From assembly GCF_017348835.2 (NCBI RefSeq), contig NZ_CP071375.1: a stretch of 64,000 nt of DNA, one strand, 5' to 3'. The number at the start of each line of letters is the position of its first letter. Position 1 is the first letter of the stretch. The position numbers were made by a program, and so were the translations under genes. This document shows positions 20,840-64,000 of the stretch, one piece after another. This DNA comes from Escherichia coli (GTDB taxonomy: Bacteria; Pseudomonadota; Gammaproteobacteria; Enterobacterales; Enterobacteriaceae). The notes beneath the pieces are model-generated. The model was given only the letters and a program-made list of their open reading frames with translations, was not told the DNA's origin and did no database searches.

Positions 20840-20853
20840 CCCTGCCCCGGAAG

Positions 20854-21717
20854 TTAAATGCTTTTACCAAAAGTATTGCATTGTGCCGGATCGCCGCTGT
20901 CGAAACCACGTTTAAACCAGCTGTAGCGTTGCTGAGAAGTGCCATGAGTGAAACTGTCTGGTACTACTCGCCCCTGACTTTGTTGTTGTAAACGGTCATC
21001 GCCGATGGCCTGCGCCGCGTTCAGCGCCTCTTCCAGATCGCCGGTTTCCAGAACGCCTTGCTGCTGCATACTATGCCCCCAGACACCGGCAAAACAGTCG
21101 GCCTGGAGTTCCATACGCACAGATAAGCGGTTCACTTCCGCCTGCGTCGCGTTTTGTTGCAGTTGACGAACTTTCGGCTCGATGCCTAACAGTTTCTGCA
21201 CATGATGACCGACTTCATGGGCGATAACGTACCCCTGGGCAAAATCGCCATCCGCGCCAAGTTTGTCTTTCATGTCATCATAGAAGGAGAGATCGATATA
21301 AACCGTGCCATCCGCCGGGCAATAGAACGGCCCCATTATGGACTGGCCCGCCCCGCATCCGGTACGCGTCATTCCACGGTACATGACCAGCTTCGGTTGC
21401 TGATAGGTCTTACCCATCTTCTCGAATTGTTGTCCCCAGGTGTCTTCCGTGGTTGCCAGAATCACCGAGGTGAATTTTGCGGCTTCGTCTTCATTTGGGC
21501 TAATTGACCGCGTTGATTGCTGTTGAGAAACCGGCTGCCCGGTCATCAACCCGGTTAAATCAACGCCATAGTAGCCTGCAACCAGCACGACTATCAGTAA
21601 AATCAGCCCGCCTTTACCGCTCGGCAGACGGAAACCGGGACCGCCCATTGACGGACCGCCGGAGCTATTGCGCCTGTCTTCAACATTGTCACTTTCACGT
21701 CGCCCTTGCCAACGCAT
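20854..21717 (-). CDS. ypfJ: Putative neutral zinc metallopeptidase YpfJ
   Basis: 287-aa ORF with an HEVGHH zinc motif and an N-terminal TM segment. Confidence 0.9.
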
Positions 21718-36927: not shown

Positions 36928-38939
36928 ATGGCTATGTCAGACGAGGCGATGTTTGCCCCGCCGCAAGGAATAACAATTGAAGCGGTAAACGGAATGCTCG
37001 CGGAGCGGTTAGCACAGAAACACAGCAAGGCGTCTTTATTACGCGCCTTCATCCCGCTGCCGCCGCCGTTCAGCCCGGTACAACTTATTGAGCTGCATGT
37101 TCTCAAAAGCAACTTCTATTACCGCTACCATGATGATGGCAGCGATGTGACGGCAACAACAGAGTATCAGGGCGAGATGGTCGATGATTCGCGCCACGCC
37201 GTCCTTCTCGGCAGTAGTGGAATGGCGGAGCTACGCTTTATTCGTACCCACGGCAGCCGTTTTACTCCCCAGGATTGCACACTGTTTAACTGGCTGGCGC
37301 GGATAATCACCCCGGTTCTGCAATCATGGCTCAATGATGAAGAACAGCAGGTGGCGCTGCGTTTGCTGGAGAAAGATCGCGATCATCATCGGGTACTGGT
37401 TGATATTACTAATGCAGTGCTGTCACATCTTGATCTCGACGATCTGATCGCTGACGTCGCCCGTGAGATCCATCATTTTTTCGGTCTGGCTTCAGTCAGT
37501 ATGGTACTGGGAGATCATCGAAAGAACGATAAGTTCAGCCTGTGGTGCAGCGATCTTTCTGCCTCACATTGTGCGTGTCTGCCACGCAATATGCCTGGCG
37601 ACAGTGTATTGCTGACACAAACGCTACAAACCCGACAACCGACCTTGACGCACCGTGCAGACGATCTGTTTCTCTGGCAACGCGACCCGTTATTACACTT
37701 ACTTGCATCTAACGGCTGCGAATCTGCGCTCCTGATACCGCTTACCTTTGGCAACCATACACCGGGTGCATTGTTGCTGGCGCATACCTCTTCCACTCTC
37801 TTTAGTGAGGAAAACTGCCAGCTACTACAACACATAGCCGATCGCATCGCTATTGCCGTTGGCAATGCCGATGCCTGGCGTAGCATGACCGATTTGCAGG
37901 AAAGTTTGCAGCAAGAAAACCACCAGCTTAGCGAGCAGCTCCTTTCGAATCTGGGCGTCGGTGACATTATCTATCAAAGCCAGGCAATGGAAGACCTGCT
38001 CCAGCAGGTAGATATTGTGGCGAAGAGCGACAGTACGGTGTTGATTTGTGGTGAAACCGGAACCGGCAAAGAGGTGATCGCCAGAGCGATCCATCAACTT
38101 AGCCCGCGACGCGACAAGCCGCTGGTCAAAATCAACTGCGCTGCCATCCCCGCCAGTCTTCTGGAAAGTGAGTTATTCGGTCATGACAAAGGGGCGTTTA
38201 CTGGTGCGATTAATACCCATCGTGGTCGTTTTGAAATTGCCGATGGCGGCACGTTGTTTCTCGATGAAATTGGCGATCTGCCGTTAGAACTTCAGCCTAA
38301 ATTGCTGCGCGTATTGCAGGAGCGGGAAATTGAGCGTCTCGGCGGGAGTAGAACGATCCCGGTGAATGTCAGAGTCATTGCCGCCACCAACCGTGATTTG
38401 TGGCAAATGGTTGAAGATCGCCAGTTTCGCAGCGATCTCTTTTATCGCCTGAATGTCTTCCCACTGGAATTGCCGCCGCTACGCGACCGTCCGGAAGATA
38501 TCCCTCTTTTAGCAAAACATTTCACGCAAAAAATGGCGCGCCATATGAATCGCGCAATTGACGCCATCCCGACCGAGGCACTACGCCAGTTGATGTCGTG
38601 GGATTGGCCGGGCAACGTGCGCGAGCTGGAAAACGTGATTGAGCGGGCGGTACTGTTGACTCGTGGTAACAGTCTGAATTTACATCTAAATGTCCGACAA
38701 AGCCGTTTACTGCCGACGCTAAATGAAGATTCAGCGCTTCGCAGTTCAATGGCGCAGTTGCTGCACCCGACGACGCCAGAGAATGACGAAGAAGAACGTC
38801 AGCGCATTGTTCAGGTATTGCGAGAAACCAATGGCATTGTTGCGGGCCCCGTGGCGCGGCGACACGATTAGGGATGAAGCGCACCACGCTGCTGTCACGA
38901 ATGCAGCGTCTGGGGATCTCGGTTCGCGAGGTGTTGTAA
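36928..38939 (+). pseudogene. hyfR: hyfR, sigma54-dependent activator (GAF + AAA+), frameshifted before the C-terminal HTH
   Basis: The main frame (MAMSDEAMFAPPQG... with GETGTGKE Walker A and GAFTGA motifs) ends ...NGIVAGPVARRHD* at 38871. The -1 frame reads GPRGAATRLGMKRTTLLSRMQRLGISVREVL* ending at 38939. The frames join at the C-run 38847-38850. Confidence 0.85.
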
Positions 38940-51721: not shown

Positions 51722-53965
51722 TCAGGCACTTTCGCGAATGGGTTCGATTTCATTCAGCGTATCAATTAACGGTTGCGGCTTACCAATAAGATAACCCTGC
51801 ATATAATCGATCCCCAAAGAGAGCACTGCCTCGCGGATCTCTTCGTTTTCAACGTACTCTGCCACTACCAGCATTTTCTTCATTCGCGCCAGGTGGCAAA
51901 TCGATGCCACTATCTGATAATCCAGACTATTTGACACAATATTGCGGATAAAACTGCCGTCAATTTTAAGCAGATCGGCATTCACATTTTTAAGCCGCGC
52001 ATAGCTGGCGTAGCCGGTGCCGAAATCATCAATCGCAATCTGGCAGCCTAATTCCTGAAGATGCTGCAAGGTGATTTGCGCCTGCTTAACATTGGTCAGA
52101 GCATTACTTTCGGTGACTTCAAAAATAAGTTGCCACGCTTCAATCTGATATTTAGCCAGCAACTGACTGACTTCAACAGGAAAACGAGCCTGACATACCG
52201 AGGTTGGAGACAGATTAATAGCAAAACGGTGAGCGGGCATCTTCGCTCTGTTTTCAGCCATAAATTGCAGCGTATGCTCAATGACCCACATGTCGATACT
52301 CGACGATAAACCAAATTCGTGCGCGACCGGCAAGAAGCTATCGGGGCTGATCAGTTCATCATTCTCACCTTTCATGCGCAGAAGAATTTCATGGTAAACA
52401 TCACCACGCATACCGGTAATTGGCTGGGCCATCAGGAAAAAATGGTTGTGTTCCAGCGCCTGCTGTAGTCGATTCATCATCGCGACTTTATCTTTCAATT
52501 CGCGTTGCAAATACATTGCCCCGCGACGCTGCATATTTTCCGGGGCGTTGGTCACGATGGAAAGTTCGGCGACCGTATTTAGCTCTCCCAGCAGCAGGTA
52601 GATATAATTCACTGGCGAGCGCACATAGCAGTAACTGACGCCAATCTGCGGTTGCATCGGCATGCCATCCCAAAAGAAACGAAATTGCTTGAGATGGCTA
52701 TCCAGTGCGGTAATGCGCTCCTGGTGCGATTCTGTATTCAGTCGCAGCGCGAGATCGTTACCCGAAAGCTGATAAACATCTTCACCCGGTTCCAGCAATG
52801 GTGACAGCCAGTGAGAAAGTTTTTGCTTGTATTGAATCCGCAGCATGATGCCATAGTTTTTAACCAGCATTTCCATGCCAGGGATGCGTAAATAACAAAG
52901 CGCAGACCAGGGGGCATCACGCAACGCGCGATTCAGGGCGCGAACATTTGGCAGATGAACCACCGGGTCCACATACGCAAGCCGCTGAATGCGTCTGACT
53001 ACCGTTCTCTGACGGGTTGCCAGTACAGCCATATAATTGACAATAAAAGAGAATACCAGATAACTGGAGGAGGTTATGGTCAGCTGCGTGGTATAGCCGG
53101 GATAAATGGGAATGTAATTTTGATAGCTGTGGATGCTGATCATCAACACGACCGCCCAGAGCAGTGAAATCAGCTTATAACCATAGCGCATCGCTCCCCA
53201 CATCATCAGGGGCAGCAATAATGACAAGGTATAATTGGTGCTAAAAATTGTGCTTTTTTCATTTAACGGCATGCATAACAGCAACAGTAAAGCACCTAAT
53301 GCCAGTAGCCAGAGTGCGAACTCTTTTTTGGTGACTTTGACATCAACCTGCTGTTTTAATTGCGAATAATAACTACGTAAATAAAACGGATTTCGAACTA
53401 CCCGAATGATGAAGTAGCACAGCGGGACACCAATCAGATTGCCCACCAGTAAGGCCTGATAATTGATTAAAGTCCCGAGGTTAAAAGGCATGACACCGAC
53501 CAGATTTTCTCTGCTCGCCAGTAATCCTACAAATGCAGCAAACTGGAAAAGTATCAGAAACAGCGTTGCAGGAAACACAATCTGCCAGAATATACGCTGG
53601 GAAATTAAACGGGTATCACCATGTGAAACGTTGTTACGCCGGGGAGTAAAGACCCTGTAACCGCCCCAACAGAGAATGATAATGATGATAAAATTAGCCG
53701 TTAATGAGAGCGTTTCGTAAAAACCCAGCTCTGCATATTTGCGGACAAAAATCCCTAAGGCGATCCCTGGCAATGCCGCCCAGCTGAAAAACATCATCAT
53801 GCTGATCATCAGTGCCAAAGGCAGATAAAAGAGAAAAACCTCACCGGAAGAAATATGCGCGAAAGTATTAATGTGGGCGAAAATAGGCAAGATTAAAGAA
53901 GGCAGGAACAGCGGAAGCCCCCACCATTTATCACGTATTTTTATATAAGTTGCATTCAGTTTCAT
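51722..53965 (-). CDS. pdeF: c-di-GMP phosphodiesterase PdeF/YfgF (MASE1 membrane domain, degenerate GGDEF, EAL)
   Basis: 747-aa ORF with an N-terminal polytopic region and a C-terminal EAL domain (EVTES...DDFGTGYAS), at the K-12 position. Confidence 0.93.
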   Translation of the reverse strand: MKLNATYIKIRDKWWGLPLFLPSLILPIFAHINTFAHISSGEVFLFYLPLALMISMMMFFSWAALPGIALGIFVRKYAELGFYETLSLTANFIIIIILCWGGYRVFTPRRNNVSHGDTRLISQRIFWQIVFPATLFLILFQFAAFVGLLASRENLVGVMPFNLGTLINYQALLVGNLIGVPLCYFIIRVVRNPFYLRSYYSQLKQQVDVKVTKKEFALWLLALGALLLLLCMPLNEKSTIFSTNYTLSLLLPLMMWGAMRYGYKLISLLWAVVLMISIHSYQNYIPIYPGYTTQLTITSSSYLVFSFIVNYMAVLATRQRTVVRRIQRLAYVDPVVHLPNVRALNRALRDAPWSALCYLRIPGMEMLVKNYGIMLRIQYKQKLSHWLSPLLEPGEDVYQLSGNDLALRLNTESHQERITALDSHLKQFRFFWDGMPMQPQIGVSYCYVRSPVNYIYLLLGELNTVAELSIVTNAPENMQRRGAMYLQRELKDKVAMMNRLQQALEHNHFFLMAQPITGMRGDVYHEILLRMKGENDELISPDSFLPVAHEFGLSSSIDMWVIEHTLQFMAENRAKMPAHRFAINLSPTSVCQARFPVEVSQLLAKYQIEAWQLIFEVTESNALTNVKQAQITLQHLQELGCQIAIDDFGTGYASYARLKNVNADLLKIDGSFIRNIVSNSLDYQIVASICHLARMKKMLVVAEYVENEEIREAVLSLGIDYMQGYLIGKPQPLIDTLNEIEPIRESA

Positions 53966-54316
53966 AGATGCTCAGCAGAATCCCCCACATCCTGAAGGAG
54001 GTGTATTCAGACAGGCATCCCACCTGACTTCGAATGATGATTATTCATCACTATAGAGAGCATTGATTCTAAGTGTCATATGAAAGTTCCAATTGATATA
54101 TATCAAACAAAATAACCCTGATTAATGAATTATTACGTTTATCATGTTAATTCATCATTATTACATCATCATTGTAAATAATTAAATTAACTTCCATAAC
54201 ATTAAAATATGTATCCACTGACGCTTTTTTACATAACGAAGAATTGACCATTTTGTCCTGTTGTGCCTTAATGTAAGTACCGTCCACAGCGTGGGACATA
54301 CTTCAAGGAACCTTTT

Positions 54317-54508
54317 GTGAGTCAGGCAACCAGTATGCGAAAACGACACCGATTTAACAGTCGCATGACCCGTATCGTACTGCTCATCAGCTTTATCTTC
54401 TTCTTTGGCCGTTTTATCTACTCGTCCGTCGGTGCCTGGCAGCACCATCAGAGCAAAAAAGAAGCTCAGCAATCCACACTCTCCGTCGAATCACCGGTAC
54501 AACGTTAG
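54317..54508 (+). CDS. yfgG: Small membrane protein YfgG
   Basis: 63-aa ORF (MSQATSMRKRHRFNSRMTRIVLLISFIFFFGRF...) divergent from pdeF as in K-12. Confidence 0.8.
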   Translation: MSQATSMRKRHRFNSRMTRIVLLISFIFFFGRFIYSSVGAWQHHQSKKEAQQSTLSVESPVQR

Positions 54509-54601
54509 CGGTTACCTTCTCCACTTTCACAGAACATAACGGCACTTTGAACCGCCCCGGAAATCCTGGAGACTAAACTCCCTGAGAAAGAGGTAAACAG
54601 G

Positions 54602-54928
54602 ATGACTAAAAATACTCGTTTTTCCCCCGAAGTCCGTCAGCGGGCGATTCGTATGGTTCTGGAAAGTCAGGATGAATATGACTCACAGTGGGCGGCAATT
54701 TGTTCCATTGCCCCAAAGATTGGCTGTACGCCGGAGACTCTGCGTGTCTGGGTTCGCCAGCATGAGCGGGATACCGGGAGTGGTGATGGTGGACTCACCA
54801 CCGCTGAACGTCAGCGTCTGAAAGAGCTGGAACGTGAAAATCGTGAACTGCGCCGCAGTAACGATATCCTTCGCCAGGCTTCCGCTTATTTTGCGAAGGC
54901 GGAGTTCGACCGCCTCTGGAAAAAATAA
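54602..54928 (+). CDS. IS3-family transposase OrfA (HTH/leucine-zipper)
   Basis: 108-aa [26 protein letters not shown]... ending at an A6 run followed by TAA. Confidence 0.95.
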
Positions 54929-55815
54929 TGCCACTGCTGGATAAGCTGCGTGAGCAGTACGGGGTCGGACCGGTATGCAGCGAACTGCATATTGCCCCGT
55001 CAACGTATTACCATTGTCAGCAACAGCGACATCATCCGGATAAACGCAGTGCCCGTGCGCAGCACGATGACTGGCTGAAGAAAGAGATACAGCGCGTATA
55101 CGATGAAAATCACCAGGTATACGGTGTGCGTAAAGTCTGGCGTCAGTTGTTACGGGAAGGTATCAGAGTGGCCAGATGCACTGTGGCACGTCTCATGGCA
55201 GTTATGGGACTTGCCGGTGTTCTCCGGGGTAAAAAGGTCCGCACTACCGTCAGCCGGAAAGCCGTTGCCGCATGCGACCGCGTAAACCGTCAGTTCGTGG
55301 CAGAACGTCCAGACCAGTTGTGGGTGGCTGATTTTACCTGGGTAAGCACATGGCAGGGCTTCGTTTATGTGGCGTTCATCATTGATGTGTTCGCCGGATA
55401 CATCGTGGGATGGCAGGTCTCATCATCCATGGAAACAACATTCGTGCTGGATGCACTGGAGCAGGCGTTGTGGGCCCGTCGGCCGTCCGGCACAATCCAT
55501 CACAGTGATAAAGGTTCTCAGTATGTATCGCTGGCCTACACGCAGCGGCTTAAGGAAGCCGGATTACTGGCATCAACAGGGAGTACTGGCGACTCGTATG
55601 ACAACGCGATGGCTGAGAGCATCAATGGTCTTTACAAAGCGGAGGTAATACACCGTAAGAGCTGGAAAAACCGGACAGAAGTGGAACTGGCCACACTAAC
55701 GTGGGTGGACTGGTATAACAATCGACGATTGCTGGAAAGGCTGGGCCATATTCCTCCGGCAGAAGCAGAAAAAGCTTATTATGCTTCCATCGGAAATAAT
55801 GATCTGGCAGCCTGA
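54928..55815 (+). CDS. IS3-family transposase OrfB (DDE catalytic domain), in the -1 frame relative to OrfA
   Basis: 295-aa ORF with DDE residues in WVADFT, HHSDKGSQY and NAMAESIN. The -1 frame is open from 54862, so an OrfAB fusion by programmed frameshifting at the A6 run is possible. Confidence 0.95.
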   Translation: MPLLDKLREQYGVGPVCSELHIAPSTYYHCQQQRHHPDKRSARAQHDDWLKKEIQRVYDENHQVYGVRKVWRQLLREGIRVARCTVARLMAVMGLAGVLRGKKVRTTVSRKAVAACDRVNRQFVAERPDQLWVADFTWVSTWQGFVYVAFIIDVFAGYIVGWQVSSSMETTFVLDALEQALWARRPSGTIHHSDKGSQYVSLAYTQRLKEAGLLASTGSTGDSYDNAMAESINGLYKAEVIHRKSWKNRTEVELATLTWVDWYNNRRLLERLGHIPPAEAEKAYYASIGNNDLAA

Positions 55816-55857
55816 GTTCACAGATAAAACACTCTCCAGGAAACCCGGGGCGGTTCA

Positions 55858-55964
55858 AACTCGTACAGTGGCGTACCACTGGGGTCCATTCCTTCAAGTC
55901 TCAGGGAAGCCTCTGCTTTGCGGAAGCCCTCAATGCGTAACCGTGTATAGGGAGTCCTAGACAT
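55858..55964 (-). pseudogene. 5' fragment (35 codons) of a VbhA-like (Fic-associated) antitoxin gene, cut by the IS
   Basis: The reverse strand reads AAGGAAAAAC ATG TCT AGG ... = MSRTPYTRLRIEGFRKAEASLRLEGMDPSGTPLYE, running straight into the IS right end. The A.ASLRLEG..PS motif is typical of VbhA-family antitoxins. Confidence 0.55.
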
Positions 55965-56045
55965 GTTTTTCCTTTGAGTTGCAGGAGTGAGGTTCGCTCA
56001 GTGAAAGCGTCAGCTCACGCAACCTCGTTAACTGACGCGCGTGAT

Positions 56046-57446
56046 TCAAGATTTATTATTACCCGATAAGCTATCACCGGCAAAATCATCATGTTCGCGG
56101 TTATCCCGACGAGTAGCTGTTTGTTTACTTATCTGAGTCGCCAACTCCTCTCCAATAGTTTGTTGGGCACGAGAAGAACTGCTACTTCGCTTCATTCTCT
56201 GGTACTCAGCAGCTCCGTTAGCCATGCTGCTTCCCATATGGCTTGCCATGCGGCCAGCACGCGAGAATGAAGCAAACCCCTGACTTCCTCCACTGGCGCT
56301 ACCTGAACTGCTCCCTGCAGACGAACCACTGTAACCGCCTGAGGTTTGGCCTCCAGAAGTATCTACAGAACCGGTATCTTCCCCGCCGCCAAATCCTCCA
56401 CCGGAACCGCCTCCGCTGCCTGAACCAGATTCTTCGTCCATGGCAGCTTGCGCAGACTCGAATGCTGCCTTTAATGCTGAAGCTCCGCCGCTGACTTGAG
56501 CTGATGCCCCCATTGCCATTGCTCCAGCACCGCTGATGGCAGTAGCGGCTGCGCCGGTAATCATACCCGCCCCAAATCCACCAATCCCTTGTAAAGAAGC
56601 CCCTCCTACAACACCTGATAACAACAGTGGTAGCTTATTAGTTAATACTAACAGGATAATTGACGCCAGAAGCAAAACTATAAGACTATTAAGATCAGGA
56701 ACATCATCTTTAATAAGAGAAAAATATTGATCTATAAATGATTGTCCAATCCCAATAATTAATGTCATCGTGAATAATTGAATGCCAATCGATAAAACAG
56801 TTCGTAAGTAATTAATTGCTATATCAGAGGTCCATTTCGAACCACCAAACCCAAGCAATATAACTCCTGCATAACATAACACCCATGCAGAAACCAACAT
56901 GATTAGCATATTTATCGCTATAAGGGACATCACTACCAAAACGATTATCGCGACTGTTATCATAATGGTGGATATCATTGGCGACCAAATTGATGCGGCT
57001 GAACTGATCTTGGTTAATATCGCAAACGCCATATCAACTATGCTTGAGGGAGAAATACCAATACTTATTTCTAAAGCGTTTGCTGCAAGTTGTCTCATTG
57101 AATTAATTATGGATTGCGATATGGATGGACCGTTGATTAAAAGATAATAAAAAAAACCAATGACGGCAAAAAAGCGAACTATTTCAGCAAGTACCCCTGT
57201 CAACCCTTCCCCTTGCATCGCCATCATACCAAATGTCCAAACCATACTTATTAATACCAGCCCCCAGAAGAGCCAATTTGCATAGTCAGCAATTACTGCT
57301 GTCCATGTACTGGCTACTTGTTGAAACTTATCTAATAAAGTATCAAGTAGCCCGCTACTATCTAATTGACCAGCATAGGCATTAATAGAAAAGAAAAGTA
57401 TGATACCTAAAAAGGTGAGCTTACTTACTATTTTCATGATTACCAT
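56046..57446 (-). CDS. trbL: TrbL/VirB6-family type IV secretion membrane protein with a Gly/Ser-rich C-terminal tail
   Basis: 466-aa ORF with a signal peptide, multiple TM segments and trbJ-trbK-trbL synteny. The low-complexity tail reads GSGSGGGSGGGFGGGEDTGS.... Confidence 0.8.
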   Translation of the reverse strand: MVIMKIVSKLTFLGIILFFSINAYAGQLDSSGLLDTLLDKFQQVASTWTAVIADYANWLFWGLVLISMVWTFGMMAMQGEGLTGVLAEIVRFFAVIGFFYYLLINGPSISQSIINSMRQLAANALEISIGISPSSIVDMAFAILTKISSAASIWSPMISTIMITVAIIVLVVMSLIAINMLIMLVSAWVLCYAGVILLGFGGSKWTSDIAINYLRTVLSIGIQLFTMTLIIGIGQSFIDQYFSLIKDDVPDLNSLIVLLLASIILLVLTNKLPLLLSGVVGGASLQGIGGFGAGMITGAAATAISGAGAMAMGASAQVSGGASALKAAFESAQAAMDEESGSGSGGGSGGGFGGGEDTGSVDTSGGQTSGGYSGSSAGSSSGSASGGSQGFASFSRAGRMASHMGSSMANGAAEYQRMKRSSSSSRAQQTIGEELATQISKQTATRRDNREHDDFAGDSLSGNNKS

Positions 57447-57613
57447 TCTCGTTTAGGGCTTGGTTTATTATTACTCCGTAGAGCACATTTATCGTATTTA
57501 TGTTCATCAAATTTATTATCTGGCATCGATAAACAATCTTTATCATTTTTATCGCAAGAACATATGGCCAATAAACTGATCAGAATAAATACAATCAAAA
57601 AATTATCTTTCAT
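57440..57613 (-). CDS. Small lipoprotein in the TrbK (entry-exclusion) position
   Basis: The track ORF 57440..57631 is trimmed to an ATG at 57613 preceded by GGTGAGGAA, giving MKDNFLIVFILISLLAICSCDKND... with a signal peptide plus Cys. The TrbK assignment is positional only, because I see no sequence similarity to RP4 TrbK. Confidence 0.55.
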   Translation of the reverse strand: MKDNFLIVFILISLLAICSCDKNDKDCLSMPDNKFDEHKYDKCALRSNNKPSPKREW

Positions 57614-57624
57614 TCTGCGTTTCC

Positions 57625-58419
57625 TCACCAAATTCGCTTCGGGCTTGGTGTATTCTCTCCAGCTAACGCTTTTTCATCAGCGGCTATCTGTTGTGATTCT
57701 TTATCTGCCTGAGCCTGTGCCAGTGTTGCTGCAGCGTTTTGTTGGGCTACCAGAAGTGAGCGGATTTGCAGTAACTGATTTGTCTGTGCACTGGCAAGCT
57801 GGTTTGCCGCCTGAATAGCTTCCATTTGCCCTTGTGCGCCGCTTGCCTGAGTTTGTAATTCGGCAAGATTATCAGCATCGCTCTGCAGGGTGTTCTGCTG
57901 CTCGTCAATTACCTTAAATACTGCGTCATTGGCCTTTTTACGCGCCCCTGAGCTATTCTGTTCAGCTTCACGCAGTGCACTAATTTCAGACGCGGTACAT
58001 TCAACATTGCTGTTAAAGCAAGACGATGTCCTGTAGTAGTTAACATCCTGATAGCGTTTCAGGTACGCATCGAGACTCCCGGCCTGATTCTTGTAGTAAT
58101 TAAGGGTATCCTGCACCTGCAACAATTTATTAATTGTTGAATTTGCCTGGTCCCAGATATAGGCCGCAGGAGCTACGGTGTTCTGCAGCATGTTTTCATA
58201 CTGCTGCAGCTGCGTCTGGTACTGCTGGATTTGTTTAGTCACAGCCTGAACGTTGTTAACTGCGCTGATTGTGGTCTGAACCACATTAGTGCCATCAATA
58301 ACGGGAATTCCGGCCTTCACCGGTAATGCCATGACGGACGCCACGAAAGGAACTATTAAAGCTTTTTTAGCGGCTAAAATCCCTCTTTGTGATGAAACCA
58401 CTCGGAACTTTAAATTCAT
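57625..58419 (-). CDS. trbJ: TrbJ/VirB5-family type IV secretion protein
   Basis: 264-aa ORF with a strong RBS (AAGAGGTGA), a signal peptide and the coiled-coil-rich Q/N-rich sequence typical of P-type TrbJ. Confidence 0.8.
   Translation of the reverse strand: MNLKFRVVSSQRGILAAKKALIVPFVASVMALPVKAGIPVIDGTNVVQTTISAVNNVQAVTKQIQQYQTQLQQYENMLQNTVAPAAYIWDQANSTINKLLQVQDTLNYYKNQAGSLDAYLKRYQDVNYYRTSSCFNSNVECTASEISALREAEQNSSGARKKANDAVFKVIDEQQNTLQSDADNLAELQTQASGAQGQMEAIQAANQLASAQTNQLLQIRSLLVAQQNAAATLAQAQADKESQQIAADEKALAGENTPSPKRIW
58366..58378. promoter_or_regulatory. KorB-operator-like palindrome TTTAGCGGCTAAA inside the 5' end of trbJ
   Basis: An exact 13-mer matching the IncP O_B consensus TTTAGCSGCTAAA lies 41-53 nt downstream of the trbJ ATG. 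Confidence 0.6.
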
Positions 58420-58462: not shown

Positions 58463-58476
58463 GTCTGTTAACAGAC
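58463..58476. promoter_or_regulatory. Perfect 14-bp palindrome GTCTGTTAACAGAC between traJ-like and trbJ (candidate operator or promoter-overlapping site)
   Basis: Read directly. It lies 44-57 nt upstream of the trbJ ATG and contains a TTAACA -35-like hexamer. Confidence 0.3.
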
Positions 58477-58499: not shown

Positions 58500-58853
58500 T
58501 TATTTATCCAAGATTTTATCCATAATGTTCCTTAGTTCTTGCCGAGTTGATTCTATTTTCGCAAGCAAGGTTCTTATCAGTGTGGGTGAAAAATCAACTG
58601 TTCGAGGATCATTTGCGAGCCATAATTTAAGTAATCCGCCAAGTCTTCCAAGATCAGCATTTACTCGGCTAAGTTCATTAACCTGTTTTATATCTACGAT
58701 AGAATCAACCTGATAACCCATTGCAACTCTACGAACAAAACAGGCAACACTTAATCCAGATGCTTCTGCATTTTCTTGGATGAGAATTTTTTCTTCGGGT
58801 AAACAATAAACTTTTATTGGCGTACTATTTTTTCTAGTCTGAGTAACTTTCAT
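58500..58853 (-). CDS. traJ: TraJ-like oriT-binding relaxosome accessory protein (IncP TraJ / MobC-type RHH)
   Basis: The track ORF 58500..58865 is placed at an ATG at 58853 preceded by GGAGAG. TPIKVYCLPEEK...VNADLGRLGGLLKLWLANDPRT...LLAKIE is colinear with RP4 TraJ as I recall it (PPIKVYCLPDER...INGDLGRLGGLLKLWLTDDPRT...LLAKIE). Confidence 0.85.
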   Translation of the reverse strand: MKVTQTRKNSTPIKVYCLPEEKILIQENAEASGLSVACFVRRVAMGYQVDSIVDIKQVNELSRVNADLGRLGGLLKLWLANDPRTVDFSPTLIRTLLAKIESTRQELRNIMDKILDK

Positions 58854-58868
58854 ATAGCTCTCCATACA

Positions 58869-58984
58869 GGCGGTAGCCTGGCAGCCTCGCAGAGCAGGAC
58901 GCCCTTGAGCCGCGATGCGGCGAATAGGGAGTGGTAAAGTTGGAACACCGTAGCGGTGGGCCCACTTTACATGTCCTGCCCTGC
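58869..58984 (+). other. IncP-type origin of transfer (oriT); predicted nick between 58978 and 58979 on the + strand
   Basis: The sequence is colinear with the RP4/RK2 oriT as I recall it. It shares an identical 18-mer CAGCCTCGCAGAGCAGGA (58882-58899), GCGAATAGGGA, GGAACACC, the hairpin CACCG-TAG-CGGTG, GGTGGGCC and the nick core GTCCTG/CCC (RP4 ATCCTG/CCC). Its position upstream of traJ is the same as in RP4. Confidence 0.8.
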
Positions 58985-59246
58985 AGTTGCCGTTGTATAT
59001 CTGTGCACGACAATGTGTATTTCAGTGTACAGGATGTGTTTTCTTAGCGTATTAATATAGGATTACTGGAGTAAATTTCTGCAGCAAATGTGTTTTTTGC
59101 AAGGAAACTATATTTCTCCCTTTTGAAAATGACCTTTAGTAGTTATAAATGGACGTCCACCAACTGTATTTATGTTTCGATATATTGTAAGAAGTCTTTC
59201 ATTTTCCGATGCACTTTTTTACTTACCTTGTCAGAGCATGTGCATT

Positions 59247-59271
59247 GCAGATTTTAGCGGCTAAAATCTGC
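59247..59271. promoter_or_regulatory. KorB-operator-like site embedded in a 25-bp perfect palindrome GCAGATTTTAGC-G-GCTAAAATCTGC
   Basis: Read directly. The core TTTAGCGGCTAAA is at 59253-59265, in the non-coding region between oriT and the iterons. Confidence 0.65.
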
Positions 59272-59397
59272 CTCCCTATGCCTAAAGCTAGGGGCGTACC
59301 TCATATGTCATAAAATCTACCTCAAGTGTCAATATACCAAACGTGTAAGTAATCTCTTCTTCTGGCGTACAACCATCGGTCTTTGGCCGATTCTAGA

Positions 59398-59431
59398 TTT
59401 GAAAGCGCCTGCTCAGGCAGGTGATTTCAAA
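59398..59431. other. Imperfect 15-bp inverted repeat (hairpin) next to the iterons; candidate oriV structural element
   Basis: TTTGAAAGCGCCTGC-tcag-GCAGGTGATTTCAAA has 13 of 15 positions complementary. Confidence 0.35.
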
Positions 59432-59481
59432 GCCTGAATATACTGGTTGATCCTGAATAACCTGCAAAGGAGTTAAAAAAT

Positions 59482-59565
59482 CAGGCCTCTGTAGCACACT
59501 GGCGGGCCGTTACAGCACATCACCGGGCCGTAACGACACGTTACCGGGCCGTTGTAGCTCGTTTT
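59482..59565 (+). repeat. Iterons: three good and one degenerate 21-bp direct repeats (candidate IncQ-type oriV)
   Basis: The units start at 59503, 59524 and 59545: CGGGCCGTTACAGCACATCAC, CGGGCCGTAACGACACGTTAC, CGGGCCGTTGTAGCTCGTTTT, with exact 21-bp periodicity. A degenerate unit at 59482 matches 12 of 21. The last unit overlaps the repC-like stop codon. Confidence 0.7.
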
Positions 59566-60314
59566 ATCCTAGAATTTTGTATCTCAATGCCAATCGCTAG
59601 AAATTGTTTGCTATCTTCTTTTAATCTCCGCCGATAGTTACGTAATGTCATATTATTGGTACCTTCACCACTGACAGCTAAAATTAATGTATCAATATGC
59701 CAGCCGCCTTTAGGATCGTGCTTATGTGTTAATATATGACGTGCAACTGCTTGGCTAATACCATGCTGGAGACGAGCAATAGGACCTGGATCATGATGAA
59801 AATGCAAATCTCGCTTCAACAACATTACCAATGCAACACCCAAGCGTACTCTCCATAGGTTACGTTCACCACCAGTTAGAGGATTACGCCTAGTCATTGG
59901 TGAGGGTACGACATGGTCAATTAAACCGCCTAGAATGCAATAACCGTTTTTTTCTAAATCTGGCGTTACTATTTCAACAGTTGCCACACGTAGATCAACG
60001 AGTAGTTTTTTAATTCGATCATAACTGTATTGTGCATCGGATAGAGTTCGGCGTACTTTCGCTGGATCTACTAATAACTCGATTCCTCCATCAGAAATTT
60101 CTCGACGTTTCTCGGCCACATAGAGCATTGTTTCCACAATATCCGCATGACGTTGTCCTAGTCTTCCGGTAACTCGACAACGACCAAAACTAGTCTCCAT
60201 CCACTGCCCCTTCAGCGCCAAGGGACGTTGACTTGGTTGGTACAGAATGACTCTAGCCTGCAGAGCTGTGCTAGTAGGTGTAACTTTATTACCAGTTATC
60301 ATTTTCTGCACCAC
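59541..60314 (-). CDS. repC: IncQ RepC-like iteron-binding replication initiator
   Basis: 257-aa ORF directly downstream of the repA-like gene. The C-terminal half (...HILTHKHDPKGGWHIDTLILAVSG...RNYRRRLKED...) aligns by eye with RSF1010 RepC (...RLCGWIDPGKTGKASIDTLCGYVW...RKRRQRVREA...). The start is either GTG 60314 or ATG 60302. Confidence 0.7.
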   Translation of the reverse strand: MVQKMITGNKVTPTSTALQARVILYQPSQRPLALKGQWMETSFGRCRVTGRLGQRHADIVETMLYVAEKRREISDGGIELLVDPAKVRRTLSDAQYSYDRIKKLLVDLRVATVEIVTPDLEKNGYCILGGLIDHVVPSPMTRRNPLTGGERNLWRVRLGVALVMLLKRDLHFHHDPGPIARLQHGISQAVARHILTHKHDPKGGWHIDTLILAVSGEGTNNMTLRNYRRRLKEDSKQFLAIGIEIQNSRIKRATTAR

Positions 60315-60330
60315 TCAATGAAGACATACA

Positions 60331-61146
60331 TTATTTTGCTATTTGTTTTTTATTCTTCGATTTGAGTTGCGTTATCCTTAATACTCCTCCCTCATGTCTC
60401 TGTAACCAACGTTCTGGCGTACGTTCTCCATAATTTGCTTTATTTATTCCAAATCTAACAAATTGACCTCGAACATCATCAGAAATATCATACGTCTTCG
60501 CTTCTAAGGCGGTCATGCCCGCCAGATAAGATTGCCACCGTATATTATCAACCAGGACGCTACTACCCCTGCTTGCCTGCTGTATATCACCAACTCCCAT
60601 CGTGGCAGAGCCTTTGTTTGAATGGTGTAGAAATATAATCGAACACCCTGTATCAGCAGCAATACCTTCTAGCTTTCCAATGACTTTGGACATTGCTCCG
60701 CTATTATTTTCATCTTCCTGGTGGAAACGGCGAAGAGTATCCAAAATTATTAACCGTCTACTTTTTGAAATCTCATTAATCAAGTTGCTCCAACCTGGCG
60801 AGAAAATATTTGGACACTTCCCTACCAAAGGTTCGACAAGTAGCTTATCAGCAACAATCTGCTGCTGACGTGCTGTTAGATATTTTCCCAAAGCATATAG
60901 ACGATGGTGAATGATGGTTGCAGAGTCCTCCACAGGTAAATATGCCACTAACCCCGTTGGATATTCACCAAAGTTTAAAAGATCTACACCACAAGTAATC
61001 TGCACAGCCAGTTGCAATGCCAGCATTGACTTTCCAACGCCTCCCGGAGAAACAATCGCTCCGATAGTACCAATAGCCAAATTAGGCAAGACGTAATCAA
61101 TTGGTTGCGGCTTAGCTTCAAATGCTTCCATTATGTTCAATGACAT
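60331..61146 (-). CDS. repA: IncQ RepA-like hexameric replicative helicase (RecA/AAA fold)
   Basis: 271-aa ORF. IDYVLPNLAIGTIGAIVSPGGVGKSMLALQLA...LDTLRRFH...IAADTGCSIIFLHH..KG...QQASRGSSVLVDNIRWQSYL is near-colinear with RSF1010 RepA as I recall it. Walker A and B motifs are present. Confidence 0.85.
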   Translation of the reverse strand: MSLNIMEAFEAKPQPIDYVLPNLAIGTIGAIVSPGGVGKSMLALQLAVQITCGVDLLNFGEYPTGLVAYLPVEDSATIIHHRLYALGKYLTARQQQIVADKLLVEPLVGKCPNIFSPGWSNLINEISKSRRLIILDTLRRFHQEDENNSGAMSKVIGKLEGIAADTGCSIIFLHHSNKGSATMGVGDIQQASRGSSVLVDNIRWQSYLAGMTALEAKTYDISDDVRGQFVRFGINKANYGERTPERWLQRHEGGVLRITQLKSKNKKQIAK

Positions 61147-61151
61147 TGCTG

Positions 61152-61382
61152 TTACCTACCTAAAACAATACCGGGTCTGGCTGCTTTAAACATTGCTGAT
61201 TTACGATCCGCAATCCACTGTTCCACTTCGGATAACTGCCATGCAACATTTCGGCTCGTAAGTGCTATACGGCGAGGAAACTCGCCTCGCTGTTCAAGGT
61301 TATAAATAGTGCGGGCTGACAATGGGATCATTTCCAGAAGTGTTTTTCTGTTAATGAGCGTGCTATGTGCCTTTGTTTGCAT
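61152..61382 (-). CDS. alpA: AlpA-family (MerR-type HTH_17) regulator/excisionase
   Basis: The track ORF 61152..61403 is placed at an ATG at 61382 preceded by GGAGGAAGG, giving MQTKAHSTLINRKTLLEMIPLSARTIYNLEQRGEFPRRI.... This is the typical AlpA/Xis motif, located 5 nt upstream of repA. Confidence 0.8.
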   Translation of the reverse strand: MQTKAHSTLINRKTLLEMIPLSARTIYNLEQRGEFPRRIALTSRNVAWQLSEVEQWIADRKSAMFKAARPGIVLGR

Positions 61383-61459: not shown

Positions 61460-62431
61460 ATGGTTGACATGAAAATTACTATCTGGGAAGGCTGTGACCT
61501 CACAGTTGCAGCTGCAATTAAATTATTTGTAGAGCGTAGTTCTCCGTACTCCATATTTTCACGGAGGTATCCAATACTGCGTCTCATACAGGAAGTTATT
61601 GATCCAGCAGTAGCTGATTATGTAAATTCCCTGCCACCAAGTCATAAAGACTACATTTCTGGAGTAAATCTAGGATTTAGTGAAGTACTTAAAAAATTGG
61701 GTTTAAACGTCGTAGTACAGGCACAAAGACTTCTTTTGCGTAATTTCGTTCTGACTTTAGATCAACAAACTTCTCTTGATAAATGCTTTACCGCTACGAT
61801 TGAGTCTCTTATTGAATTAGTCAGTGAATGCGCATCCAAGCGGCCGAAGAAATCCTCTCCTGCAAAAGGAGTAACTATAAATTCACAGCGTAAGCTCGGT
61901 TATTGCGAGTTCTGCGGTAATCTAACCGAATTTTCCAAGTTGATCAGTGAGATATCAGAATTTGTTGCTAACGATAATGAGTTCCCCGTTCATGAAAAAC
62001 AGGTCCTTAGTCATCGATATTGTTCTGACCATAGGCCCAAACTCACCAATGGTCTATGGAATCCCAAATACAGACAAGGAAAGCGGTCTCTCGAACAGTT
62101 CAATAAAGAATTAATAAGGCTTAGACGGCAATGCGCTAAACCTCATAAAGCTAACGCAAACACAGGGGATATATTGATTGATACATATTTTCATGAGTGG
62201 ATGCAGGGTCAAACTTTAACCCCAGCAGATCTAGATAAACTTAGGAATATCGCCAGACGAATGGTTGACTCCAAATTCACTGATACTAAGAAAAAAATAA
62301 TCATATTAAAACACCAAGGTTTTAACCAGTTTGAAACCGCACAGGTTTTAGAAAAAAATCACTACACAACTATGACAAAGCAGGCTGTGTCCAAGGCCTT
62401 AGCGTCTGTGAGGAAAGAATTTTATATTTAA
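61460..62431 (+). CDS. Hypothetical protein with a CxxC...CxxH motif and a C-terminal HTH-like (sigma70 region 4/LuxR-like) segment; divergent from alpA
   Basis: The long track ORF 61367..62431 has its first 31 codons overlapping alpA, so I place the start at 61460 or 61469. No good RBS is visible and the start is uncertain. Motifs are GYCEFCG...YCSDH and ...ILKHQGFNQFETAQVLEKNHYTTMTKQAVSKALASVRKEF. Confidence 0.55.
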   Translation: MVDMKITIWEGCDLTVAAAIKLFVERSSPYSIFSRRYPILRLIQEVIDPAVADYVNSLPPSHKDYISGVNLGFSEVLKKLGLNVVVQAQRLLLRNFVLTLDQQTSLDKCFTATIESLIELVSECASKRPKKSSPAKGVTINSQRKLGYCEFCGNLTEFSKLISEISEFVANDNEFPVHEKQVLSHRYCSDHRPKLTNGLWNPKYRQGKRSLEQFNKELIRLRRQCAKPHKANANTGDILIDTYFHEWMQGQTLTPADLDKLRNIARRMVDSKFTDTKKKIIILKHQGFNQFETAQVLEKNHYTTMTKQAVSKALASVRKEFYI

Positions 62432-62853: not shown

Positions 62854-62872
62854 AATTTTAGCAGCTAAAATT
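62854..62872. promoter_or_regulatory. KorB-operator-like palindrome, variant centre (AATTTTAGC-A-GCTAAAATT)
   Basis: A 9-1-9 perfect palindrome is read directly with core TTTAGCAGCTAAA at 62857-62869, in a non-coding gap. Confidence 0.55.
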
Positions 62873-63008: not shown

Positions 63009-63638
63009 TTAAACCATGGTCTGTTCAGCGTTAAATTTCTCAAGATAGACTTCCATTTCGCGAGTCCACCTAGGGGTAGGTACCGAGGTGATCATTAGCC
63101 AAGGAAACCACCATACAAGCATGAAGAGTAACATAAGCGGTGCGATCATTTCGGCCGAAGAATGAGAAACTATATACATAATGAATAATATTAGTAGAAC
63201 TGTGTTTACAATCTGACCTACCAGAAAAAGACGCCAGCGAAAACAATGCCATTTCCTGTTGAACACAATCCGTCCATCCCGTTCTTCGAGCCAGTTACGC
63301 CACGGCTTGAGATAACCAGCCCGCAACCCATAACGATCACACATTATTACAGCCAAATCCTGCAGCCGATAATTATACAAGCCTGTGAGCCGATAAAGGC
63401 TGCGCTGACGAAGCTCACGCTTTGCCAGACGGACCGCATTTTTATTCAAATATGGCTGTGTCAGCATTTGCTCTAGCCGGCGCTTCCTAAGATTGAGTAG
63501 TCCACGAAATACACTTCCAGATTCAGCATTAATTACTCTGTGACGAACTACACCGAGTGCAATATAGATACACAGCAATAGCCAGCCGGTCTTAGGGTAT
63601 TGATTCATCCATTGTATAATTACAGACAACTCAGGCAC
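63009..63638 (-). CDS. Hypothetical membrane protein (one N-terminal and two C-terminal TM helices, basic central domain), GTG start
   Basis: 209-aa track ORF with hydrophobic segments TGWLLLCIYIALGVV, LFLVGQIVNTVLLILFIMYIV and MIAPLMLLFMLVWWFPWLMI. I recognise no family. Confidence 0.6.
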   Translation of the reverse strand: MPELSVIIQWMNQYPKTGWLLLCIYIALGVVRHRVINAESGSVFRGLLNLRKRRLEQMLTQPYLNKNAVRLAKRELRQRSLYRLTGLYNYRLQDLAVIMCDRYGLRAGYLKPWRNWLEERDGRIVFNRKWHCFRWRLFLVGQIVNTVLLILFIMYIVSHSSAEMIAPLMLLFMLVWWFPWLMITSVPTPRWTREMEVYLEKFNAEQTMV

Positions 63639-63689: not shown

Positions 63690-63708
63690 AATTTTAGCGG
63701 CTAAAATT
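63690..63708. promoter_or_regulatory. KorB-operator-like palindrome AATTTTAGC-G-GCTAAAATT upstream of the membrane-protein gene
   Basis: A 9-1-9 perfect palindrome has its core TTTAGCGGCTAAA at 63693-63705. It lies 52-70 nt upstream of the GTG at 63638 and 54 nt downstream of the int stop. Confidence 0.65.
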
Positions 63709-63761: not shown

Positions 63762-64000
63762 CTACTTACTAGTCCATTCATCAATCATATTCGCCCAATC
63801 TTGTAGCATCTCAGCCCTCTGCTCACGATATTCTGCCTTGTTATAAACAGCTCGTACCCCTTTTTGTTCATGGGCAAGGCTCTTCTCAATCCAGTCAGTA
63901 TTGTACCCGGCCTCATGTAGCAAGGTGCTGGCTGTACGCCGTAAGTCATGGGGACCAAACTTAGGCAACAACTCCCCTTCTTTCTGAGCCAGGCGATACG
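63762..64000 (-). CDS. int: Tyrosine recombinase (P4-type integrase), C-terminal about 79 codons; the 5' part lies right of the window
   Basis: The frame is open to the window edge. It reads ...YRLAQKEGELLPKFGPHDLRRTASTLLHEAGYNTDWIEKSLAHEQKGVRAVYNKAEY..., containing the HxLRxT box, LAH and the catalytic-Tyr region. Confidence 0.85.
   Translation of the reverse strand, partial: YRLAQKEGELLPKFGPHDLRRTASTLLHEAGYNTDWIEKSLAHEQKGVRAVYNKAEYREQRAEMLQDWANMIDEWTSK

Follow-up and report, generated by a model that had tools for sequence, protein, structure and literature searches.

Relaxase-less islands at guaA

The DNA analysed here, a 64-kb stretch of Escherichia coli sequence (the window) that is 100% identical to the chromosome of the pig isolate PE164, carries an element of a type that is already described and partly characterised in the literature. 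Its central part is a segment resembling the origin of transfer (oriT) of incompatibility group P (IncP) plasmids, which adjoins a traJ gene. The best overall explanation, which we hold to be very probable, is an integrative mobilizable element inserted at guaA and belonging to subfamily PIME1 of the GIsul2/PIME family, i.e. a relaxase-less oriT island that borrows its transfer functions from a helper plasmid.

Among the closest known systems, GIsul2 and the IncP island are covered in a review by Guedon and co-workers (PMC5704250). In GIsul2 (Nigro & Hall 2011; Harmer et al. 2017), trbJKL are present and a relaxase is lacking; a helper of the IncP type has been proposed for this element (PMC5704250). 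Like the window element, it occupies the 3' end of guaA and encodes a tyrosine integrase, RepA/RepC-type proteins and trbJ-trbK-trbL, with neither relaxase nor coupling protein (PMC5704250). In contrast to our element, no TraJ-type accessory factor is listed for GIsul2 (PMC5704250) and its cargo consists of sul2/CR2 and ars; its overall sequence similarity is low according to a preprint of January 2026, in which Perta et al. introduced the name PIME (bioRxiv 10.64898/2026.01.12.698999, hereafter Perta et al.). In this classification PIME1 is defined by alpA together with a divergent luxR-family gene. The E. coli type element PIME1EcRHB23-C07 spans 22.2 kb including a large accessory region, encodes int, alpA, luxR, repA, traJ, trbJ and trbL and no traI, and has an IncP-like oriT with a 17-bp inverted repeat (Perta et al.). 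The window element shares with it the host species, the position beside guaA, these genes, the lack of traI and a 17-bp repeat, whereas it comprises only about 9.4 kb without cargo and distal attachment (att) site; the two are likened by their described architecture and not by sequence. Two other PIME1 members have been shown to be excised, replicated or mobilised in response to an IncP plasmid (Perta et al.).

The IncP island of Brucella suis and Burkholderia glumae and the element PIME1MmNCTC12028 also combine traJ, trbJ and trbL with an IncP-type oriT, and insertion at guaA is stated for the B. suis IncP island and for both characterised PIME1 elements. Unlike the window element, however, they encode their own MOBP relaxase TraI, and the IncP island TraK in addition. 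SGI1, which is mobilised by IncA/C plasmids, is a functional analogy only: it is likewise a relaxase-less island that brings a few replacement subunits of the type IV secretion system (T4SS) and exploits regulators and the partition system of its helper (PMC5704250; PMC10954446), but the sequences are unrelated, the subunits belong to MPF_F and not to MPF_T, and oriT type and integration site are different.

An IncP-type oriT with its TraJ

The oriT region comprises the following features (window coordinates, predicted nick marked by a slash):

58869-58984, plus strand: core of the IncP-type oriT, 78% identical to the RP4 oriT and supported by multiple alignments; the plus strand is the predicted transferred strand
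58882-58899, plus strand: 18-mer CAGCCTCGCAGAGCAGGA, identical in RP4, pMCR_1511 and pDS1; R751 matches the last 16 nt
58934-58970, strand not applicable: imperfect inverted repeat with 17-nt arms (58934-58950 and 58954-58970), a 3-nt loop and 82% complementarity
58973-58979, plus strand: nick core GTCCTG/C, with the nick predicted by homology between 58978 and 58979, 8 nt past the repeat as in RP4
58985-59078, plus strand: island-specific conserved segment on the leading side of nic, located where plasmids have the traK-promoter/TraK-binding region

An earlier note on this DNA had proposed an RP4-like oriT on the basis of a 116-nt string, which is identical to window 58869-58984, and of an RP4 oriT sequence quoted for comparison, which turned out to be identical at 121 of 121 positions to the traJ-traK intergenic region of our RP4 reference (pRP4, CP152305.1, 51121-51241). 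In the global alignment both segments are colinear with 96 matches in 123 columns (78%), and the score of 61 compares with -11.9 ± 5.1 for 2000 shuffles (z = 14.3). Since this is far beyond chance, the resemblance to the RP4 oriT is real. Identities to R751, pMCR_1511 and pDS1 are 73%, 81.5% and 79%, respectively, and blastn against plasmid traJ-oriT regions gave E-values from 1e-25 to 5e-49. As the note had claimed, the segment adjoins a TraJ homologue: the ATG of traJ is located at 58853 on the minus strand, 16 nt from the segment, and the gene reads away from the oriT. Judged by sequence, the segment is thus a genuine IncP-type oriT with its cognate TraJ.

The oriTs of the window and of RP4, R751, pJJ1886_4, pMCR_1511 and pDS1 have in common, in colinear order, the 18-mer, which the note had also recognised as identical to RP4, a GAATA(A/G)GG block, the imperfect repeat, an 8-nt spacer and TCCTG/CCC, with traJ reading away. 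Between 18-mer and repeat lies a conserved TTGAG...GCGAATAGGG block. In contrast to all these plasmids, the window has no traI 3' of traJ, and the opposite side lacks traK and the TraK-binding/traKp region. The likeness to plasmids stops about 20 nt past nic (near 59000), where island-specific DNA replaces the plasmid CGCCAAGGAAAGTCTACAC (TraK-binding side); the segment 58985-59078 is 82-100% conserved among islands that have unrelated DNA further downstream.

Inverted repeat and nick region

The repeat ends 8 nt before the predicted nick, in agreement with the note's hairpin just upstream of the nick region, but its description as a shorter 5-3-5 repeat has to be corrected: CACCG-TAG-CGGTG is only the perfect inner part of the 17-nt-arm repeat, which is colinear with the 19-bp repeat of RP4 and, by DNA folding and alignment, agrees with it in the internal positions of the mismatches. 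Among relatives, variation of the inner arms (AACACCG/CGGTGGG versus ATAACCTG/CAGGTTAG) leaves them complementary, and this compensatory change argues for selection on the palindrome. The RP4 repeat is bound by TraJ at its nic-proximal arm, 8 bp from nic, and TraI requires TraJ for strand-specific cleavage (PMC7314908). The island repeat is the homologue of this TraJ-bound repeat, and TraJ binding is predicted for it.

The nick core TCCTG/CCC reported by the note is present as GTCCTG/CCC (58973-58978/58979). Compared to the consensus (C/T)ATCCTG(C/T) (PMC3772185), the window sequence TGTCCTG/C matches in TCCTG/C and the flanking bases, whereas the first base of the hexanucleotide is G and not A. 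This departure from the classical consensus stands beside the statement that the nic site of PIME1 is "conserved" (Perta et al.). The note was right about the G at position -6, but this base is no peculiarity of the element: RP4, R751 and pMCR_1511 have A, whereas the G form ACATGTCCTG/CCC is shared by the conjugative MOBP/MPF_T plasmids pDS1 and pJJ1886_4 and by a plasmid-like contig of Salmonella diarizonae. Because these conjugative plasmids have the same variant, it is compatible with a working oriT in the pJJ1886_4/pDS1 clade, and it may bear on the choice of the helper. We also considered the -6 base as a specificity determinant, but a comparison of TraI from pJJ1886_4 (G) and pMCR_1511 (A), which are 89% identical overall and 74% in the first 300 amino acids, allows no conclusion in either direction.

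As a side observation, the nick region (58973-58984) has a 12-nt inverted copy overlapping the 18-mer at 58889-58900, with 11 of 12 positions complementary. This complementarity might form a long-range stem, either in the transferred strand or in the RNA leader of traJ. Across the surveyed oriTs, covariation is seen between the -6 base and its partner (C/G at 5 loci, T/A at 110, A/A or C/A at 5; 115 of 120 paired), but the C/G cases all come from a single enterobacterial lineage and the island of strain EcPF16 violates the rule, so that the pairing is unproven.

Transfer genes of the island

Downstream of the oriT, the order is oriT-traJ-trbJ-trbK-trbL:

58500-58853, minus strand: traJ, 117 amino acids, oriT-recognising accessory protein of the relaxosome (Pfam NikA-like, 8e-23)
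57625-58419, minus strand: trbJ (VirB5-like; NCBIfam TrbJ, 379 bits), 85% identical to trbJ of pJJ1886_4 at the amino acid and 86% at the nucleotide level
57440-57613, minus strand: trbK-like gene for a small lipoprotein of 57 amino acids, at the entry-exclusion position between trbJ and trbL
56046-57437, minus strand: trbL (VirB6-like; Pfam TrbL, 1.4e-29; NCBIfam TrbL_P, 270 bits), 56% identical to TrbL of pJJ1886_4

TraJ reaches 159.8 bits with the NCBIfam TraJ equivalog model (cut-off 134) and is 68% identical to its counterpart in pDS1, 64% in pJJ1886_4, 60% in pMCR_1511, 54% in RP4 and 46% in R751; a sigma-70 promoter scan found no traJ promoter. The TrbK-like open reading frame (ORF) has no Pfam or NCBIfam match and is only 25% identical to TrbK of pJJ1886_4, yet it has a signal/lipobox-like N-terminus and a C-terminal KPSPKREW in common with TrbK of R751. 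Relative to pJJ1886_4, the combination of TrbJ at 85%, an adjacent TrbK-like protein at 25% and TrbL at 56% is the pattern expected of a switched exclusion specificity. The 80-bp spacer between traJ and trbJ contains a perfect 14-bp palindrome, GTCTGTTAACAGAC (58463-58476), which is not followed by a T run and could be an operator.

Using tblastn with the proteins of RP4, R751, pMCR_1511 and pJJ1886_4, we found no match in the 64-kb window to TraI (four variants), TraG, TraF, TraK/L/M or TrbB/C/E/F/G/I, and also none to KorB, IncC or KorA. Hence, the only IncP transfer proteins encoded there are TraJ, TrbJ, the TrbK-like lipoprotein and TrbL, which bears out the note's statement that traI and traG are missing after traJ and that trbJ follows directly. 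This lack of a relaxase, a coupling protein and a full T4SS rules against a self-transmissible or canonical relaxase-encoding element. The note had suggested looking for a MOB_P relaxase in island and genome. For the window, with the part of the island that it contains, the answer is negative by tblastn; as regards the host genome, a pJJ1886_4-type traI occurs in 63 genomes and PE164 is not among the 60 of these 63 matches listed.

Relatives and distribution

Several traits of the GIsul2/PIME family were found: a tyrosine integrase gene at the guaA 3' end, the combination of int, alpA and repA with trbJ plus trbL, as well as an oriT resembling that of IncP helpers. The arrangement of alpA (minus strand) and a divergent LuxR-annotated ORF (plus strand) is also present, with the LuxR label resting on the RefSeq annotation. 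Flanking att repeats and defence cargo are absent from the window, where the distal repeat and the cargo were replaced by an insertion sequence (IS); the element is a truncated member and not a different family. The intact relatives in strains Br_167_kylling, HS, EcPF16 and MB64 have the same gene order at the same site, followed by higA and defence cargo (helicase/DUF2290 in Br_167_kylling, the intact relative of the window island), and are bounded distally by AAATCATTCCCACTCA, a direct repeat of 16 bp that copies the 3' end of guaA. None of these four encodes traI.

The window-type traJ-oriT occurs in 109 of 5426 complete E. coli genomes and is chromosomal in all of them. Beyond the species, a scan of species-representative genomes with a pattern that includes the 16-nt core of the 18-mer recovered at least 120 IncP-type oriTs, 68 of which had enough flanking sequence to be classified. 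The plasmid-like order traJ-traI was seen in 32 cases and traJ-traI-trbJ in 5; 10 loci have the layout of the window (traJ-trbJ without traI) and 6 the GIsul2-like layout with trbJ and no traJ next to the oriT. Of the remaining 15, 12 lack all three genes, 2 have only traI and 1 has only traJ.

Truncation of this copy by an IS3-family element

54548-55857, plus strand: IS3-family insertion sequence of 1310 bp, which truncates the island

Window positions 53000-54545 and 55859-57000 match the intact relative Br_167_kylling (L002) at 12591-14136 and 19860-21001, and the 1313 bp in between (54546-55858, with junctions at 54545/54546 and 55858/55859) stand in place of 5.7 kb comprising yfgH, yfgI, the distal att repeat, the DUF2290/DEAD-helicase cargo, a resolvase pseudogene and most of higA. 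Apart from this replacement, both islands are 98.8% identical. A search for a second copy of the att core between pdeF and trbL (L001 17000-20100) was negative. As the distal att site was lost together with the replaced DNA, Int-mediated excision of this copy should be impossible. The remnant is an oriT module that is fixed in the chromosome, with its leading side directed towards rep-alpA-int-guaA. The earlier note's mobilizable passenger that needs an IncP relaxase and T4SS in trans is therefore essentially right with respect to the relaxase-less, IncP-dependent oriT module, but this copy is an IS-truncated remnant and no longer an excisable passenger.

Proposed mechanism

Except for the induced excision and replication, which were shown for related elements (Perta et al.), the following steps are drawn from homology. 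An incoming IncP-type plasmid would induce Int/AlpA/LuxR-dependent excision and RepA-dependent replication of an intact island. The island TraJ would then bind the nic-proximal arm of the island's own diverged 17-bp repeat and recruit the helper TraI, which is predicted to cut the plus strand between G58978 and C58979. TraG and the Trb T4SS of the helper would export the strand in 5' to 3' direction, so that the oriV/rep/alpA/int side would enter the recipient first and traJ last; in RP4, too, the traJ side is transferred last (PMC7314908). TrbJ, TrbK and TrbL of the island probably substitute into the pilus and the exclusion system of the helper, in line with the proposal that these proteins of such islands modify the helper apparatus or exclusion (PMC5704250).

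Four points weigh against a relaxase-less island that is mobilised by a helper. Only two IncP helpers have been tried on the E. coli type element, which has no relaxase, and on its cloned oriT-traJ fragment, and both gave poor mobilisation, which leaves helper dependence a supposition for this subtype (Perta et al.). The altered base is the first of the ATCCTG hexanucleotide, which RP4 TraI and VirD2 are reported to need in vitro (PMC3772185). The TraK-binding side of the plasmid oriT is missing from the island oriT. Finally, among complete E. coli genomes the island and the candidate helper discussed below co-occur in at most 1 of 303 genomes where about 2.7 are expected, i.e. there is no enrichment; we regard co-occurrence with IncP-like plasmids as uninformative.

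Some of these points would also fit a non-functional fossil, in which oriT-traJ-trbJKL is the decaying remnant of an integrated IncP plasmid or integrative and conjugative element and the oriT is no longer used by any relaxase. The IS truncation of this copy, the traJ pseudogene of the EcPF16 relative, the failure of pB10 and pKJK5 to mobilise the E. coli type element and the departure from ATCCTG are all consistent with decay. However, intact ORFs in this compact order are found again in the 109 E. coli genomes and in at least 10 further representatives at species level, compensatory changes affect the repeat arms next to an invariant nick core, trbJ shares 86-94% nucleotide identity with circulating plasmids, pointing to ongoing exchange, and efficient mobilisation has been observed for a related PIME that has this layout and traI in addition (Perta et al.). 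We therefore consider a fossil improbable.

Somewhat less probable still is an anti-plasmid device, whose oriT copy, TraJ, TrbK-like protein and KorB operators would mainly hinder IncP plasmids that enter the cell, as a decoy for the relaxosome, through entry exclusion and through titration of KorB. Such a function would agree with four KorB-operator sequences in the absence of a korB gene, with the TrbK-like lipoprotein, the defence cargo of relatives, the rare co-occurrence of island and plasmid and the decrease of pB10 abundance when PIME1Mm replicates (Perta et al.). Yet the co-occurrence is not significantly below expectation, the oriT of PIME1Mm is a working transfer origin (Perta et al.), and interference is compatible with mobilisation, as SGI1 does both (PMC10954446).

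That the RepC-position protein, the 209-aa or the 323-aa ORF, three island ORFs without family assignment in Pfam or NCBIfam, is an unrecognised relaxase and only the T4SS is borrowed is very unlikely, as this oriT type is cut by a MOBP TraI in every characterised case, the RepC-position protein accompanies a RepA helicase in small plasmids typed as mobilizable, the weak matches of the 209-aa ORF are only to membrane-protein families, and Pfam, NCBIfam and tblastn give no relaxase signature.

Which plasmid acts as helper?

For the relaxase-less island with borrowed transfer functions, the note had suggested a helper of the RP4/R751 type, which is probably wrong. The kind of test with classical IncP helpers that the note proposed has in effect been made on the E. 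coli type element of this subfamily. Its excision is induced both by pB10 (given as an IncP plasmid) and by pKJK5, yet these plasmids do not efficiently mobilise either the element or the oriT-traJ fragment cloned from it, and the authors suspect a different helper (Perta et al.). The nucleotide identity of trbJ to pJJ1886_4-type plasmids, 86% for the window and 94% for the EcPF16 island, leads us to nominate these as the natural helper. This nomination is further based on the GTCCTG nick variant that the window has in common with pJJ1886_4 and pDS1, on the likeness of the repeat arms and on the divergence of TraI: the enzymes of pJJ1886_4-, pMCR_1511- and pDS1-type plasmids are only 47% identical to TraI of RP4 and R751. 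The window repeat differs from that of pMCR_1511 at three bases (two in the distal arm and one in the nic-proximal arm), and the repeat of the EcPF16 island is identical to that of pJJ1886_4. Considering these sequence comparisons, a helper from the enterobacterial IncP-like clade (pJJ1886_4, pMCR_1511, pDS1) appears more likely than one from the classical IncP-1 alpha, beta or epsilon groups, with pB10 and pKJK5 presumably belonging to IncP-1beta and IncP-1epsilon, respectively. Of the 5426 E. coli genomes, 63 contain a plasmid of the pJJ1886_4 type, and enterobacterial IncP-like plasmids can carry mcr and extended-spectrum beta-lactamase genes.

The EcPF16 island (L010 14001-14520) has a mosaic oriT: its traJ-proximal part is nearly identical to pMCR_1511, its repeat is that of pJJ1886_4, it is followed by the trbJ with 94% identity to pJJ1886_4, and its traJ is a pseudogene. 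We take this mosaic as evidence of recombination between islands and these plasmids.

KorB operators

The KorB operator core TTTAGCSGCTAAA is in use as OB site (PMC11790492). Searching the window revealed four such sequences (three perfect and one with a single mismatch), all of them within the island, where 0.11 are expected by chance:

58366-58378, strand not applicable: KorB operator consensus TTTAGCGGCTAAA inside the 5' end of trbJ; the same site is present in trbJ of R751 and pJJ1886_4
59253-59265, strand not applicable: KorB operator consensus in the centre of a perfect 25-bp palindrome with 12-nt arms (59247-59271), between nic and the iterons
62857-62869, strand not applicable: KorB-operator-like TTTAGCAGCTAAA with one mismatch, intergenic
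63693-63705, strand not applicable: KorB operator consensus 55-67 nt upstream of the 209-aa ORF (start 63638), beside the int 3' end

Every relative examined, in E. coli and other genera, has one to four of these sites, and the operator on the leading side is kept at nic+196 to nic+274 in window-type and HS-type islands despite non-homologous surroundings. A KorA operator was not found in the window; in HS-type islands (L009, E. coli HS), the sequence TTTTAGCTAAAC about 380 nt past nic matches the KorA operator GTTTAGCTAAAC at 11 of 12 positions.

Four operators without a korB gene suggest that the island is wired to the KorB of its helper. The helper-derived inducer of PIMEs is stated as unknown (Perta et al.), and neither this preprint nor the other literature searched mentions KorB in the context of PIMEs. 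By analogy with SGI1, which hijacks the parABS system of IncC plasmids (PMC10954446), we tentatively propose, as a possibility somewhat short of an even chance, that the island is plugged into its helper via KorB, for the timing of expression and/or as a borrowed centromere of the excised replicon, and that the true helper belongs to the pJJ1886_4/pMCR_1511 clade. If so, a borrowed KorB centromere would cause incompatibility with, or a depressed copy number of, the helper, as SGI1 does with the IncC parABS system; for the related PIME1Mm, a reduced abundance of pB10 upon replication was reported (Perta et al.). With a true helper from this clade, it would also be understandable that the E. coli element is induced by pB10 and pKJK5 without being mobilised.

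Other features of the island and the window

In PE164 the order is guaA, int, the 209-aa ORF, the divergent luxR-annotated gene, alpA, the repA helicase gene, the RepC-position ORF, iterons, oriT, traJ, trbJ, trbK and trbL. The int gene abuts the guaA 3' end, so that guaA and the proximal att site are located just beyond the window.

63762-64000, minus strand: 3' end of the tyrosine integrase gene, whose last 239 nt are included before the window end cuts it (1191 nt in PE164)
61460-62431, plus strand: divergent regulator annotated as LuxR family by RefSeq only
61152-61382, minus strand: alpA-type regulator (Pfam Phage_AlpA, 7.5e-13)
60331-61146, minus strand: RepA-family helicase (Pfam AAA_25, 9e-29; RefSeq product name)
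59541-60302, minus strand: RepC-position protein without Pfam or NCBIfam match
59503-59558, plus strand: three direct repeats 21 bp apart (CGGGCCGTWAC...), putative iteron-type replication origin (oriV)

The LuxR-annotated ORF gives no match in Pfam and NCBIfam. Homologues of the RepC-position protein with 62-65% identity lie beside a RepA helicase in mobilizable enterobacterial plasmids of 5-9 kb, where they are annotated as "ABC transporter ATPase". The 209-aa ORF, with its start codon at 63638, has no family assignment and only weak matches to membrane-protein families. From their position beside the rep genes and by comparison with the oriV of PIME1Mm, the repeats at 59503-59558 are a putative iteron oriV; the surrounding region (59390-59565) also contains an inverted repeat with 23-nt arms (59390-59439). 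The motif TACCTCA(T/A)(A/G)TGTCA occurs twice, 21 bp apart (59297-59310 and 59318-59331), and a copy is found in the otherwise unrelated HS-type sequence (L009, about 14744-14764), where it follows the KorB operator at a distance of about 70 nt. The remainder of the window belongs to the core chromosome of E. coli, from eut to yfgG, in which PE164 has pdeF (51722-53965) annotated as a pseudogene due to an internal stop and hyfR (36928-38939) annotated as frameshifted.

Implications

That relaxase-less islands travel with no more than an oriT, a single specificity protein and three subunits of pilus or exclusion system, and that such islands spread defence systems and, in the case of GIsul2, resistance genes, is already in the literature; of our results, only the nomination of a helper and the KorB-operator sites go beyond the literature accessible to us. 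The copy analysed here could, if confirmed, be a useful example of an island immobilised by IS-mediated deletion, with a chromosomal oriT left beside guaBA. If the nomination is confirmed, enterobacterial IncP-like plasmids of about 40-60 kb, including the mcr-1 plasmid pMCR_1511, would provide the E. coli PIME1 subtype with a definite candidate for its missing helper. On the question, left open by Perta et al., of how the island might sense, exploit or destabilise its helper, the KorB operators could, if confirmed, offer a testable route.

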